A stretch of DNA of 64,000 nt from an uncultured Acidobacteriota bacterium (GCA_964561785.1 CAZLRF010000009.1:41686-105685); one strand, 5' to 3'. Positions 43,355 to 52,121 are shown, counted from the stretch's first letter. Notes: generated by a model not told the origin, from the letters alone. Numbers and translations: made by a program.

Positions 43355-45087
43355 GCCGGAAGGAGGCCCTGGCCGTCGCCGTCGGCGTCGCCCTCTTCGC
43401 GGGGCTCGCGGTCGACTCCCTGCGCCGCTCGTCGGCGACCTACGACGAGCCCGCCCACCTCTCCGCCGCCTGGACCCACCTCGCCCTCCACGACTACCGC
43501 CTCTCCCCGGACCACCCGCCCCTCGTCAAGAGCCTCGCCGCGGTGCCGCTCCTGTTCCTCGACGTGAAGATGGACGAGAGGGACGAGGCCTGGGAGGAGC
43601 ACGCGATCTGGCGCTTCGCCCGCCGCTGGCTCTACCAGTGGAACGACGCGGACCGCCTGCTCTTCTGGGGCCGGCTCCCCATCGTCGCCCTCGCCGCCTC
43701 TCTCGCCGTGGCCGTCTTCCGGTGGACCCGCGCGCGGCTCGGACGGGCGGCCGCCTTCCTCGCCTTCTTCCTCGCGGTGCTCTCGCCCGAGCTGCTCGCC
43801 CACGGCCAGCTCGTCACCACCGACCTCGGGGCCGCGGCCTTCGTCTTCCTCGCGGTGGCCGCCTTCGACGCCGCCCTCGAGCGCACGACGCCGGTCCGGG
43901 TCCTCCTCGCCGGCGCGGCCCTCGGGGCGGCGCTCGCGACCAAGTTCTCCGCCCTCGGCCTTCTCCCCATTCTCCTCGCCGTCGCCGCCGCCCGGGTCCT
44001 CGACCCCCGCCCGCTCGTGCTGCGCGCGCGCGGGGAGCGCCTCGTCGAGCGACGCTCCGCCCGCGCGGCCGCCCTGCTCGCACTGCTCGCTGCTCTCGTG
44101 CCGGTCGCCGTCCTGGTGATCTGGGCGGCCTACGGCTTCCGCGGCTCGTTCGGCGCCGACCCCGGTCTCGCCGCTTCGTTCCCGTGGGACGGCCTGCGCG
44201 AGAGCGACCCCGTCGTCCACCGCGCGGTCGACGCCGCGCGCTCGCTCTCGCTCCTCCCCGAGCCCTACCTCTTCGGCTTCCTGCGCTTCTTCGAGCACTC
44301 GGAGGCGCGGCGGGCGTTCCTCCTCGGCCAGCTCTCGGACACGGGCTTCCCGCACTTCTTCCTGGTGAGCTTCGCGGTGAAGACGCCGCTGCCGCTGCTG
44401 CTGCTCTTCGCGCTCGCCCTCCTCGGCCGCGGCCGCGACTCCTTCCGGCCCGGGGCCCTCGCCGCGGCGTGGCTGCCCCTCCTCGTGTACGCCGCCCTCA
44501 CCCAGACCCGCGGCCTCAACATCGGCCACCGCCACCTGCTGCCGCTGTACCCGTTCGTCTTCGTCGTGGCCGGCGCCGCCGGGGCGTGGCTCCCGAGGCG
44601 CTTCGGCCGGCCCGGCGCGGTCCTCCTCGCCGCGCTCCTCGGCTGGTACGCGTGGGGGACGCTGCGTGTCCACCCCCACGCGCTCGCCTACTTTAACGAG
44701 ACCGTGGGCGGCCCCGCCGGCGGCTGGCGGGTGCTCGTCGACTCGAGCCTCGACTGGGGACAGGACCTCTCGCGCGTCGAGCCGTGGATGAAGGCCCACG
44801 GCATCGAGCGCTACAAGCTGTCCTACTTCGGCACCGCCTCGCCCGCCCACCACGGGATCACCGGCGAGATGCTGCCCGGCTACTCGTCTCCGCGCGCGCC
44901 GCACGTCACGCGCGAGGTGAGCCCGGGCGACGTGCTCGCGGTGAGCGCGACCAACCTCCAGGGCGTCTACCTCGACGGGGAGGACCAGGCCCTCGTGGCG
45001 CGGATCCGCGACCTCGCGCCCACGGGGCGGATCGGCTACTCGATCCTCGTCTTCCGGTCCGACTTCCGCTGGCCGGCCGCGCCCTAG
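43351..45087 (+). CDS. GT-C-fold glycosyltransferase (GT39/GT83 PMT/ArnT-like), polytopic membrane protein
   Basis: First-loop YDEPAH (DE motif), >10 TM helices, large C-terminal periplasmic domain; start TTG 43351 inferred. Confidence 0.6.
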   Translation: MSRKEALAVAVGVALFAGLAVDSLRRSSATYDEPAHLSAAWTHLALHDYRLSPDHPPLVKSLAAVPLLFLDVKMDERDEAWEEHAIWRFARRWLYQWNDADRLLFWGRLPIVALAASLAVAVFRWTRARLGRAAAFLAFFLAVLSPELLAHGQLVTTDLGAAAFVFLAVAAFDAALERTTPVRVLLAGAALGAALATKFSALGLLPILLAVAAARVLDPRPLVLRARGERLVERRSARAAALLALLAALVPVAVLVIWAAYGFRGSFGADPGLAASFPWDGLRESDPVVHRAVDAARSLSLLPEPYLFGFLRFFEHSEARRAFLLGQLSDTGFPHFFLVSFAVKTPLPLLLLFALALLGRGRDSFRPGALAAAWLPLLVYAALTQTRGLNIGHRHLLPLYPFVFVVAGAAGAWLPRRFGRPGAVLLAALLGWYAWGTLRVHPHALAYFNETVGGPAGGWRVLVDSSLDWGQDLSRVEPWMKAHGIERYKLSYFGTASPAHHGITGEMLPGYSSPRAPHVTREVSPGDVLAVSATNLQGVYLDGEDQALVARIRDLAPTGRIGYSILVFRSDFRWPAAP

Positions 45088-51131: not shown

Positions 51132-52121
51132 TCAGGCGGCGGCGCGGCGGCGGTAGGCCCCGGGGGGGGTCCCGAAACGGCGGCGGAAGGCCTTGCTGAA
51201 GGCGGCCTCCGACTCGTAGCCGACGCTCGCGGCGACCTCGCCGAGAGAGAGCGCCCCGTCCTGCAGGAGTCCGGCCGCCGTCTCGAGCCGCCAGCGCGAG
51301 ACGTACGCGAGGGGAGGCTCGCCCACGAGGGCCGCGAAGCGGGCGGCGAAACGCGAGCGGGACATCCCCACCGCCTCGGCCAGCGAGGCGTTCGTCCAGC
51401 CCCGCTCCGGCGCGCGGTGGACGAGGGCGAGGGCAGCGCCGACCTGGCGGTCGCGCAGCGCCCCCATCCAGCCGCCCTGTCCCTCGGGCAGCGACTCGAT
51501 CCACGCCCGGAGCACCTGGACGAAGAGGACGTCGGTGAGGCGCGAGACGATCGTCTCCGTCCCCGGCCGCGCCTCGCGGGTCTCCCAGGCCAGGAAGCGC
51601 AGGGTCGCTTCCAGCCACTCCGCGGCCGGCGTCTCGGCCGGCCGCAGGTGGATGAGCGGAGGCAGCAGCTCGACGAGCGGGTGCGCCTGTCTCCGCTCGA
51701 AGCGGAACGAGCCGCAGACGAGCCGTGTCTCCGGCCCCTCGCCCCCGCCGCGCATGACGAGGCAGCCGCCCTCGCTCCCATGCCGGCCGGCCATCTCCGA
51801 CAGCGGCCGCGCCGTCGTGCCGAGCGAGTCGGTGAGGGTGTGGCCGGTCCCGTGGGGCACGACCACGAGGTCGCCGCCCGCGAGGGCGACCGGCTCTTCT
51901 CCCTCGATCCGCAGCCAGGCGCCGCCGCGCTCGATCACGTGGAAGTGCGCGTAGTCCGAGCGCTTCAAGGCCATGCCCCACGGTGCCTTGAGCTCGGACC
52001 GACAGAAGACCCGGCTGCGCAGTCGCACCGCGTCCATGACCGTCGTGAGGACGTCGCTCGCGTCGGTTCGCCAGGCCGCCGGTATGGGACGATCGGACAA
52101 GAAAGCGGGATTCTGCGACAT
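51132..52121 (-). CDS. AraC-family transcriptional regulator with cupin-type sensor domain
   Basis: N-terminal cupin (LVVVPHGTGHTL); C-terminal double HTH (SLAEAVGMSRSRFAARF...SVGYESEAAFSKAFRRRFGTPP). Confidence 0.85.
   Translation of the reverse strand: MSQNPAFLSDRPIPAAWRTDASDVLTTVMDAVRLRSRVFCRSELKAPWGMALKRSDYAHFHVIERGGAWLRIEGEEPVALAGGDLVVVPHGTGHTLTDSLGTTARPLSEMAGRHGSEGGCLVMRGGGEGPETRLVCGSFRFERRQAHPLVELLPPLIHLRPAETPAAEWLEATLRFLAWETREARPGTETIVSRLTDVLFVQVLRAWIESLPEGQGGWMGALRDRQVGAALALVHRAPERGWTNASLAEAVGMSRSRFAARFAALVGEPPLAYVSRWRLETAAGLLQDGALSLGEVAASVGYESEAAFSKAFRRRFGTPPGAYRRRAAA

Follow-up and report, generated by a model that had tools for sequence, protein, structure and literature searches.

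A lineage-specific arrangement of AraC, MFS-spermidine synthase, SagB-like and S9 peptidase genes, probably co-transcribed, in an uncultured Acidobacteriota bacterium

The azoline dehydrogenases SagB, BcerB, McbC, ThcOx and BmdC belong to thiazole/oxazole-modified microcin (TOMM) or linear azol(in)e-containing peptide (LAP), cyanobactin and non-ribosomal peptide synthetase (NRPS) pathways, and a Lys-Tyr motif is important in the TOMM dehydrogenases. Another nitroreductase-fold protein, Ava_2154 of Anabaena variabilis (PDB 3EO7), is a 'putative nitroreductase' with an unpublished JCSG structure (Joint Center for Structural Genomics), which has been cited only for molecular replacement or structural comparison (PMC5108345, PMC8795117). 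The present study concerns a 64-kb stretch of DNA from an uncultured Acidobacteriota bacterium (64,000 nucleotides; GCA_964561785.1, CAZLRF010000009.1:41686-105685; hereafter, the window), in which a SagB-like gene is located in a string of four minus-strand genes, between the genes of a fused MFS/spermidine synthase protein (MFS-SpdSyn) and an S9 peptidase, with the gene of an AraC-family regulator at the 5' end. The string consists of known, already annotated families, and their arrangement is confined to one lineage. On balance, it is best regarded as a lineage-specific, evolutionarily unstable gene string, probably co-transcribed, and not as a dedicated biosynthetic module.

51132-52121, minus strand: AraC-family regulator with Cupin_6 (193 bits) and HTH_18 (82 bits) domains, 329 aa.
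48862-51090, minus strand: MFS-SpdSyn, a polytopic membrane domain with a C-terminal spermidine-synthase-fold domain, 742 aa (assigned by NF037959, MFS_1, Spermine_synth and hydropathy).
48862-48865, minus strand: ATGA overlap of the MFS-SpdSyn stop codon and the SagB-like start codon.
47207-48865, minus strand: SagB-like protein, 552 aa.
47207-47210, minus strand: ATGA overlap of the SagB-like stop codon and the S9 start codon.
45084-47210, minus strand: predicted secreted S9 serine exopeptidase of the Dpp5 / acylaminoacyl-peptidase type, 708 aa (assigned by hidden Markov model (HMM) matches and motifs).

The window has a GC content of 73-77% throughout, and the genome one of 75%. The third-position GC of 0.93-0.98 in the frames listed for all four genes indicates that these are the coding frames. 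As read directly from the sequence, the AraC and MFS-SpdSyn genes are separated by 41 bp, and both subsequent junctions are overlaps (-4 and -4 bp). A ribosome-binding site, AAGGAG, is located 8-9 nt 5' of the ATG of the S9 gene, and a consensus scan found no intrinsic terminator inside the string. Judging by this layout, the four genes are probably co-transcribed. The sequence-only reading of the window, made by a model, had taken the two ATGA overlaps as strongly implying co-translation. The overlaps themselves, like the 41-bp gap, are exactly as it described, and they permit coupling, but junctions of four base pairs also occur at no fewer than eight other co-directional gene pairs in the window, mostly in the his and trp operons. 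Since such overlaps are the rule in the operons of this genome, the ATGA junctions show operon organisation and nothing more specific. The same reading was correct in the gene identities, coordinates and strands, all of its family assignments being upheld by HMM scoring, in the presence of a cupin-AraC regulator on the same strand with a divergent DJ-1/PfpI gene, in the PSSGNLHPTE motif and two nitroreductase halves of the SagB-like protein, and in the signal peptide and beta-propeller of the S9 peptidase. The public annotation of the source contig already carries equivalent names for the four proteins.

The linkage of the MFS-SpdSyn, SagB-like and S9 genes was found only in the window and in one related locus, L081 (88% identity). 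A scan of one genome per species revealed at least 577 loci with SagB-like relatives, the best 80 of which, with an identity of 43-60%, were kept; they come from Acidobacteriota, Planctomycetota, Nitrospirota, Gamma-, Beta- and Alphaproteobacteria, Myxococcota and Hydrogenedentota. This level of identity extends across at least seven phyla. None of the 80 loci possesses the three-gene linkage. Within a distance of 10 kb from the SagB-like gene, tblastn (E<1e-3) found no homologues of the S9, MFS-SpdSyn, AraC or DJ-1 proteins in these loci, with the sole exception of a distant SpdSyn-like domain located 6 kb away in one of them. All-against-all clustering of the flanking open reading frames (ORFs) showed no partner common across phyla and nothing recurrent beyond synteny within Nitrospira. 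The Pfam scan of the 148 immediate neighbours detected 164 families, the commonest being TPR (6/148) and VIT1 (4/148). To judge by these neighbourhoods, the SagB-like enzyme is a genuine stand-alone protein with no conserved partner. A protein of about 285 aa without a Pfam or NCBIfam match is encoded on the same strand 4-145 bp 3' of the SagB-like gene in 19 Nitrospira/Nitrospirota loci (for example, at 11733-12590 in L023), being a genus-level conserved neighbour.

Closer relatives are Vicinamibacteria-like and are designated here by the L-numbers of their loci; their SagB-like proteins are 60-88% identical to that of the window. Most of them are metagenomic contigs, and a gene called absent is absent within 8-10 kb, not from the genome. 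The window, L001, L083-L085, L099 and L100 have a common backbone order: GGDEF/GAF, AA_permease, Beta_elim_lyase, (SCFA_trans), a slot, the SagB-like gene, a second slot, (PBP, Adenosine_kin), an unknown 385-aa protein, a PGM1-like ATP-grasp protein, PolyA_pol and Fic. The anchors in the window are as follows.

57000-59735, minus strand: anchors on one side, SCFA_trans (57000-58352) and Beta_elim_lyase (58356-59735), placed alike with respect to the SagB-like gene in relatives.
38110-41969, no strand assigned: anchors on the other side, PBP (41490-41969), Adenosine_kin (40915-41403), the 385-aa protein (39653-40810) and the PGM1-like ATP-grasp protein (38110-39642), recognised by synteny.

The SCFA_trans and Beta_elim_lyase anchors are 86-95% identical in L084, L085, L099 and L100 and 69% identical in L001, and those from PBP to ATP-grasp are 81-93% identical in L082-L084 and also present in L001. 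On this synteny, the SagB-like gene appears as a fixed, vertically inherited gene of the chromosomal backbone, with slots of variable content on either side. In the same genome pairs, the backbone neighbours are 81-95% identical to those of the window, the SagB-like protein only 66% and the S9 peptidase 74-82%. The SagB-like protein is thus the least conserved member of the syntenic backbone; across phyla, its identity bottoms out at the 43-60% mentioned above, with many residues invariant. As to the anchors themselves, the PGM1-like ATP-grasp protein (ATP-grasp_IQCH and PGM1_C domains) and the 385-aa protein, which has no Pfam match, are encoded as a pair (38110-40810) in the window, L082 and L084; the pair is fragmentary in L083, and both genes are matched in L001.

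The upstream slot of the window and L081 contains the genes of PilZ, GFO_IDH_MocA, LtrA (in the window only), NADP-oxidoreductase, DJ-1, AraC and MFS-SpdSyn. Among the relatives compared, MFS-SpdSyn is found in the slot only in these two. L100 contains the NADP-oxidoreductase, DJ-1 and AraC genes followed by a URO-D/MtaA-like gene that overlaps the SagB-like gene. In that locus (9950-14522), the gene standing in the place of MFS-SpdSyn has a methyltransferase fold, and a PIN/PhdYeFM pair follows the SagB-like gene. L085 retains 113 bp from the AraC 3' end as a relic (7731-7843; 84% DNA identity, 76% over 29 aa) about 160 bp 5' of an intact SagB-like gene, with the S9 gene also intact and no remnant of MFS; the relic indicates an older adjacency of the AraC and SagB-like genes and its recent decay. 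A 40-aa ORF overlapping the start of the L085 SagB-like gene was considered as a precursor or an MFS remnant and rejected, as it is similar to neither and not conserved. In L001, the slot is empty, and Beta_elim_lyase directly abuts the SagB-like gene. The slot of L082, and of no other relative, is occupied by a SynChlorMet-like cassette of the type found with ribosomally synthesised and post-translationally modified peptides (RiPPs), located at 7409-9934 on the minus strand, divergent from the SagB-like/S9 pair and 66 bp upstream of it. The cassette encodes a PqqD-family chaperone, a radical SAM (rSAM)/SPASM maturase, a 52-aa ORF and an HprK-related/ScmC-like protein.

The downstream slot varies as well. 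The S9 gene is intact in the window, L081, L082 and L085. In L100, its first ~120 codons are replaced behind the inserted PIN/PhdYeFM toxin-antitoxin pair and the frame contains an in-frame stop, so it is likely to be a pseudogene; a sequencing error is also possible. The gene is absent downstream of the SagB-like gene in L083, L084, L099, the P0006 contig and L001. Altogether, the SagB-like/S9 pair occurs in four of the nine Vicinamibacteria-like lineages, once as a pseudogene, and five of the nine have no AraC gene next to the SagB-like gene. On the neighbour-joining tree of SagB-like proteins, which is star-like and suited to qualitative reading only, lineages that have S9 are interleaved with lineages that lack it. 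In six relatives (L099, 9764-10597; L085, 11887-12720; also L082-L084 and the contig 3300075153 of the Joint Genome Institute (JGI)), the SagB-like gene, alone or paired with S9, is directly followed by the gene of a 277-aa radical SAM protein with a CNFDCPYC motif, no NCBIfam match and a mutual identity of 80-83%. This gene was considered as a general partner of the SagB-like gene and rejected, since neither the window nor any of the 80 cross-phylum loci contains it.

The SagB-like protein passes the TIGR03605 SagB domain model narrowly (82.6 bits against a cut-off of 78.4), with the match in the N-terminal half, and stays below the cut-off of the 'peptide maturation dehydrogenase' model TIGR04511 (72 versus 240 bits). 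The family is large, with at least 7949 significant homologues among the matches listed. The PSSGNLHPTE motif (residues 105-114) is almost invariant across the family. Residues N104-P112 (NPSSGNLHP), E114, W175-K176-Y177-G178 and R337-R338-S339 are invariant, as are the Cys/His motifs with C185 (CQHDVGHA), C447 (SCHQEI) and C505 (GIGCFFDD); variability is concentrated mainly in the linker between the halves, at about residues 230-330. The R337-R338-S339 motif belongs to the C-terminal half, and we take it to resemble the motif of nitroreductases that binds the phosphate of flavin mononucleotide (FMN). The AlphaFold model (pLDDT 88.7, pTM 0.93) had a sole full-length fold match in a Foldseek search, 3EO7 (E 1.7e-26, TM 0.64/0.72, 570 aligned columns), which was also matched by phmmer (E 8.8e-23) over residues 5-228 and 443-533. 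The next fold matches cover one half each; they include ThcOx, BmdC and McbC and, at a lower rank, AlbAB, a cyclodipeptide oxidase. The first three, which are peptide azoline oxidases, come structurally closest to the N-terminal half. When the two halves were compared by hhalign, the register was as expected, with a probability of 1.7%, and the two nitroreductase halves are established from the structure, namely from the match of the model to the single-chain pseudodimer 3EO7. According to this model, the SagB-like protein is a member of the orphan Ava_2154 family of single-chain nitroreductase-fold pseudodimers. Its N-terminus, as read by eye, is not signal-peptide-like. A literature search on SagB tandem nitroreductases found nothing relevant.

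The S9 protein contains a Peptidase_S9 domain (192 bits) and three PD40 repeats forming an N-terminal beta-propeller. Its N-terminus, MTRTLALAAALAALCPGAAADG, is signal-peptide-like, and a GWSWGG nucleophile motif is located at residue 543. The full-length match to the Dpp5 model NF053518 reaches 454 bits against a cut-off of 900, and that to the lasso-peptide isopeptidase model 121 bits against 400, both below the cut-off. Among solved structures, the S9 peptidase 8WT1 (E 4e-79) and acyl-peptide hydrolases are nearest to it. Since the best matches are Dpp5, 8WT1 and acyl-peptide hydrolases, the protein is classed, at the level of sequence, as an exopeptidase and not as a macrocyclase-type prolyl oligopeptidase. 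The gene of a PMT_2-like polytopic membrane protein (42979-45087, plus strand) converges on the S9 gene, the stop codons sharing 4 bp (45084-45087), and no terminator lies between the two convergent transcription units.

The membrane domain of MFS-SpdSyn comprises ~12-14 hydrophobic segments and is internally duplicated, as revealed by the hydropathy plot. With 107 bits, the protein exceeds the cut-off of 40 of the fused MFS/spermidine synthase model NF037959. Residues 16-319 are matched by MFS_1 (42 bits) and residues 518-650 by Spermine_synth (40.5 bits). All SpeE equivalog models (TIGR00417, PRK00811 and PRK03612) failed: their cut-offs are 250-472 bits, and the protein scores 41-96. When it is aligned to Arabidopsis SPDS1, GLGSGD stands in the place of GGGDGG and DAIWP in that of DSSDP; Ser is opposite the Asp of GGGDGG and Trp opposite the second Asp of DSSDP, the first Asp of DSSDP being retained. 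Presumably, of the three acidic residues in contact with the amines of the substrates in SpeE structures (Thermotoga maritima and human SpdS), two are thereby replaced. The variants are conserved in MFS-SpdSyn relatives as GLGSG[DE]T and EADA.[WY]P. These features suggest that the SpdSyn-fold domain is probably active as a transferase and is unlikely to be a canonical aminopropyltransferase; they make the transfer of an aminopropyl group to putrescine doubtful. JGI annotates the protein as a 'predicted membrane-bound spermidine synthase', and a literature search on fused MFS spermidine synthases found nothing relevant. A scan for relatives, made on metagenome contigs, returned 13 loci, mostly short, with informative flanks in L088, L090, L091 and L092. 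No SagB-like or S9 gene was found beside these four relatives, which have an identity of 55-59% and a readable downstream flank; their neighbours include LpxA-like, MarR-like and AsmA-like genes, as recognised by eye from translations. The 55-aa 'members' of the MFS-SpdSyn sequence cluster are unrelated and were discarded as a clustering artefact.

The conserved partners of the AraC regulator lie on its other side.

52122-52196, no strand assigned: divergent AraC/DJ-1 control region with a candidate -10 box and operator, from a five-locus alignment.
52197-52943, plus strand: DJ-1/PfpI family protein, 248 aa (DJ-1_PfpI, 57 bits), divergent from the AraC gene at a distance of 75 bp.
52940-53575, plus strand: NADP oxidoreductase (F420_oxidored / NAD_binding_2 fold), 211 aa, overlapping the DJ-1 gene by 4 bp.

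Homologues of the regulator (71-92% identity) in L081, L100, L101 and L102 are all divergent from the pair of DJ-1/PfpI and NADP-oxidoreductase genes, the DJ-1 proteins, in the same position, being 84-93% and the oxidoreductases 72-89% identical to those of the window. The gene 3' of AraC varies: it encodes MFS-SpdSyn, a URO-D-like protein or a 269-aa protein, or is a convergent FKBP gene. In L101 and L102, the cassette lies far from any SagB-like gene. As AraC is always paired with DJ-1 and the oxidoreductase and the gene 3' of it changes, the conserved partners of the regulator are DJ-1 and the oxidoreductase. The intergenic region contains an invariant GTGTTATAGTCC element with a TATAGT -10-like hexamer facing the AraC gene (five loci, AraC 71-100% identical), and the same five-locus alignment shows a GTCC..GGAC inverted repeat ~20 nt 5' of the AraC start codon. 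A consensus sigma-70 scan, which is uninformative for promoters at 75% GC, found no promoter. The best NCBIfam match of the regulator is the reactive-chlorine sensor RclR (NF040475), below the cut-off (136 versus 400 bits).

With regard to peptide maturation, a SagB-type FMN dehydrogenase domain (TIGR03605) is present, as in TOMM/LAP clusters. The genes scanned across the window include none for a YcaO cyclodehydratase or for an E1-like, lanthipeptide, rSAM-RRE (RiPP recognition element) or any other RiPP enzyme, and there was no YcaO-type gene among the recurrent families of the 148 immediate neighbours in the 80 orthologue loci. All 29 small ORFs in the region 44000-53600 are inside annotated genes or straddle them, and none is free-standing or credible as a precursor. 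The intergenic DNA of the cluster amounts to only 41 + 75 bp, which leaves no room for a precursor gene. PADLOC anti-phage models gave no matches for the five proteins.

Several explanations of the string were weighed against these observations. The sequence-only reading had proposed a polyamine- or peptide-modifying module, and had noted the lack of YcaO and precursor genes and set the locus apart from a classical TOMM cluster. The latter points are borne out; the module as a coherent three-gene unit is not, as the linkage is missing everywhere except in the 88%-identical relative. A single pathway of this kind, with transport or aminopropylation followed by dehydrogenation and proteolytic maturation, would agree with the translational coupling of all three genes, the structural closeness of the N-terminal half to ThcOx, BmdC and McbC, the conserved Lys-Tyr motif (W175-K176-Y177) and the adjacency of SagB-like and S9 genes in four of nine related lineages. 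It is nevertheless very unlikely, being largely refuted by the neighbourhood data: in L100, an unrelated URO-D/MtaA-like gene takes the place 5' of the SagB-like gene, in L085 this place is empty, and S9 was lost repeatedly and has become a probable pseudogene in L100. Besides, the S9 protein is of the exopeptidase type and exported, whereas the flavoenzyme has no signal-peptide-like N-terminus, and the SpdSyn-fold domain is devoid of two of the three acidic residues that bind amine groups in SpeE structures. Alternatively, the SagB-like and S9 proteins might act in trans on an azoline-containing or radical-SAM-modified RiPP, the precursor and core enzymes of which would be encoded elsewhere in the genome, in line with the divergent SynChlorMet-like cassette 66 bp upstream of the pair in L082 and with the 277-aa radical SAM gene in six relatives. 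However, the cassette is present in one of nine lineages, in a slot that holds unrelated genes elsewhere; the radical SAM gene is missing from the window and the 80 loci of other phyla, where no neighbour family exceeds 6/148 and YcaO-type genes are not recurrent; and the TIGR04511 score of 72 bits is far from 240. Such a role is very unlikely as well.

The main rival is a stress or nutrient regulon of the AraC, SagB-like and S9 set in this clade, a tentative and rather improbable alternative. According to it, the RclR-like AraC protein senses an oxidant or electrophile and switches on both the DJ-1/PfpI and NADP-oxidoreductase genes and the transcript from AraC to S9, with the SagB-like protein as a detoxifying oxidoreductase; regulation would be shared, but not a pathway. 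Nitroreductases belong to the regulons of the Escherichia coli AraC-family regulators SoxS, MarA and Rob, and DJ-1/PfpI and NADP-oxidoreductase genes are typical of the stress response. The AraC gene is upstream of and co-oriented with the SagB-like gene in window/L081 and L100 and as a relic in L085, the gaps are short and free of terminators, the AraC promoter/operator region is conserved, and RclR is the best NCBIfam match of the regulator. On the other hand, this match reaches 136 bits of the 400 required, the AraC cassette is also found remote from the SagB-like gene (L101, L102), the SagB-like gene has no AraC neighbour in five of the nine Vicinamibacteria-like lineages and in all 80 loci of other phyla, and in L085 the AraC gene has decayed with SagB-like and S9 intact. 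The interpretation favoured here, a lineage-specific and unstable string of independent functions, has its own difficulties. The neighbour-joining tree is star-like and not robust. AraC, SagB-like and S9 genes occur together in three lineages (window/L081, L100 and, as a relic, L085), and this recurrence, together with the SagB-like/S9 pair in four of nine lineages, looks ancestral to the clade and not accidental, so some selective benefit of co-regulation is possible. Moreover, the 4-bp overlaps in the window mostly join functionally linked genes (his, trp, DJ-1/oxidoreductase), and co-expression of the string could therefore reflect function. The simplest reading of the gene contents would be that the AraC cassette, the SagB-like gene and S9 (with the radical SAM gene) were ancestral to the clade and have been eroding independently, and that MFS-SpdSyn is a late insertion in the lineage of the window.

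Under the favoured interpretation of a co-transcribed but functionally heterogeneous string, transcription would start at the conserved AraC promoter region and read through the AraC, MFS-SpdSyn, SagB-like and S9 genes, which is proposed because of the gaps of 41, -4 and -4 bp and the lack of a terminator; the overlaps would allow translational coupling. The AraC protein, the signal of which is possibly redox or electrophile, would control mainly DJ-1 and the oxidoreductase, and the genes 3' of it would ride on its own transcript. By analogy with ThcOx, BmdC and McbC, the characterised proteins nearest to it in structure, the SagB-like protein is most likely a cytoplasmic FMN enzyme that dehydrogenates a small molecule, either heterocyclic or derived from a peptide, in a two-electron reaction. 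The S9 protein would be a periplasmic exopeptidase with a probable role in peptide scavenging, and MFS-SpdSyn a membrane-anchored transferase dependent on S-adenosylmethionine (SAM) or decarboxylated SAM (dcSAM), with non-canonical chemistry. The S9 protein is exported, MFS-SpdSyn is a polytopic membrane protein and the SagB-like protein has no signal-peptide-like N-terminus; the three products are judged to work independently, in the periplasm, membrane and cytoplasm, respectively.

The direct significance of the locus is small, as all four proteins fall into families already named by annotation pipelines. A SagB-type dehydrogenase gene beside a prolyl-oligopeptidase-family gene is not to be taken as a sign of RiPP biosynthesis if the dehydrogenase is a stand-alone tandem protein of the 3EO7-like kind. 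This orphan family is widespread, strongly constrained and without a known substrate, a question that the present locus makes no more tractable. In Vicinamibacteria, its gene has a fixed chromosomal position between two slots of ever-changing content. A bolder and decidedly doubtful proposal is that the SagB-like flavoenzyme is a housekeeping or stress enzyme that has escaped recognition and whose substrate is non-ribosomal, a small molecule or dipeptide-like. In one Vicinamibacteria clade, it would have been brought, along with a periplasmic peptidase of the dipeptidyl type, under the control of an RclR-like redox/electrophile sensor. If so, the ancestral AraC/SagB-like/S9 string would be a regulon linking peptide scavenging to flavin-dependent dehydrogenation, and MFS-SpdSyn or the URO-D-like transferase would be an interchangeable accessory of that regulon.

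The remaining part of the window has mostly housekeeping content, including his and trp operons, DAHP synthase, Rho, RNase II, CoA transferase and similar functions. The his operon is followed by the trp operon with an embedded RidA-like gene (L-PSP) at 3981-17434, the junctions being mostly 1-bp or 4-bp overlaps. A single stop-to-stop frame at 20861-22534 encodes a Ser/Thr protein kinase, a response-regulator receiver and a LytTR DNA-binding domain; it adjoins the genes of a LytS-type histidine kinase and a LiaF-like protein and represents either an unusual fusion or two adjacent genes. No tRNA genes or Rfam matches were found in the window.

Compared with the described systems, the regulator shares with RclR, a Cupin_6-type AraC protein encoded divergently from the genes that it controls, the Cupin_6 and HTH_18 architecture and a divergent arrangement, which here is the conserved pairing with the DJ-1/PfpI and NADP-oxidoreductase genes across a conserved intergenic element; its score shows that it is not an orthologue. 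The S9 protein has the architecture of Dpp5 and acylaminoacyl-peptidases (a PD40 / TolB-like propeller), aligns with the Dpp5 model over the full length and has a GxSxGG motif; unlike Dpp5, it is below the equivalog cut-off and would belong to the same S9 exopeptidase group without being an orthologue, and it differs from RiPP macrocyclases in not being of the S9A prolyl-oligopeptidase type. With membrane-bound aminopropyltransferases of the NF037959 / PRK03612 type, MFS-SpdSyn has in common the polytopic N-terminal domain and the C-terminal SpeE-fold domain. It departs from SpeE-type aminopropyltransferases in possessing GLGSGD and DAIWP and in falling below every SpeE equivalog cut-off.

The azoline dehydrogenases and the SagB-like protein share the TIGR03605 match and the PSxG...E.Y signature, and the W-K-Y motif aligns with the WKY of ThcOx. 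In contrast to the dehydrogenases of TOMM/LAP, cyanobactin and NRPS pathways, the SagB-like protein is accompanied in the 64-kb window by no gene for a YcaO protein, an E1-like partner or a precursor, and none of these was recurrent among the gene families next to the 80 orthologues; a second nitroreductase half stands in place of an RRE or peptide-clamp domain; and its gene appears to belong to the vertically inherited backbone and not to a mobile biosynthetic cluster. The closest likeness is to Ava_2154 (3EO7), which also combines two nitroreductase-fold halves in one chain, and no RiPP partner stands beside the window gene or its orthologues examined here. The identity to 3EO7 is only about 22%, and the subfamily of the window protein is much tighter, with 43-60% identity across phyla and the extra invariant Cys/His motifs of C185, C447 and C505.

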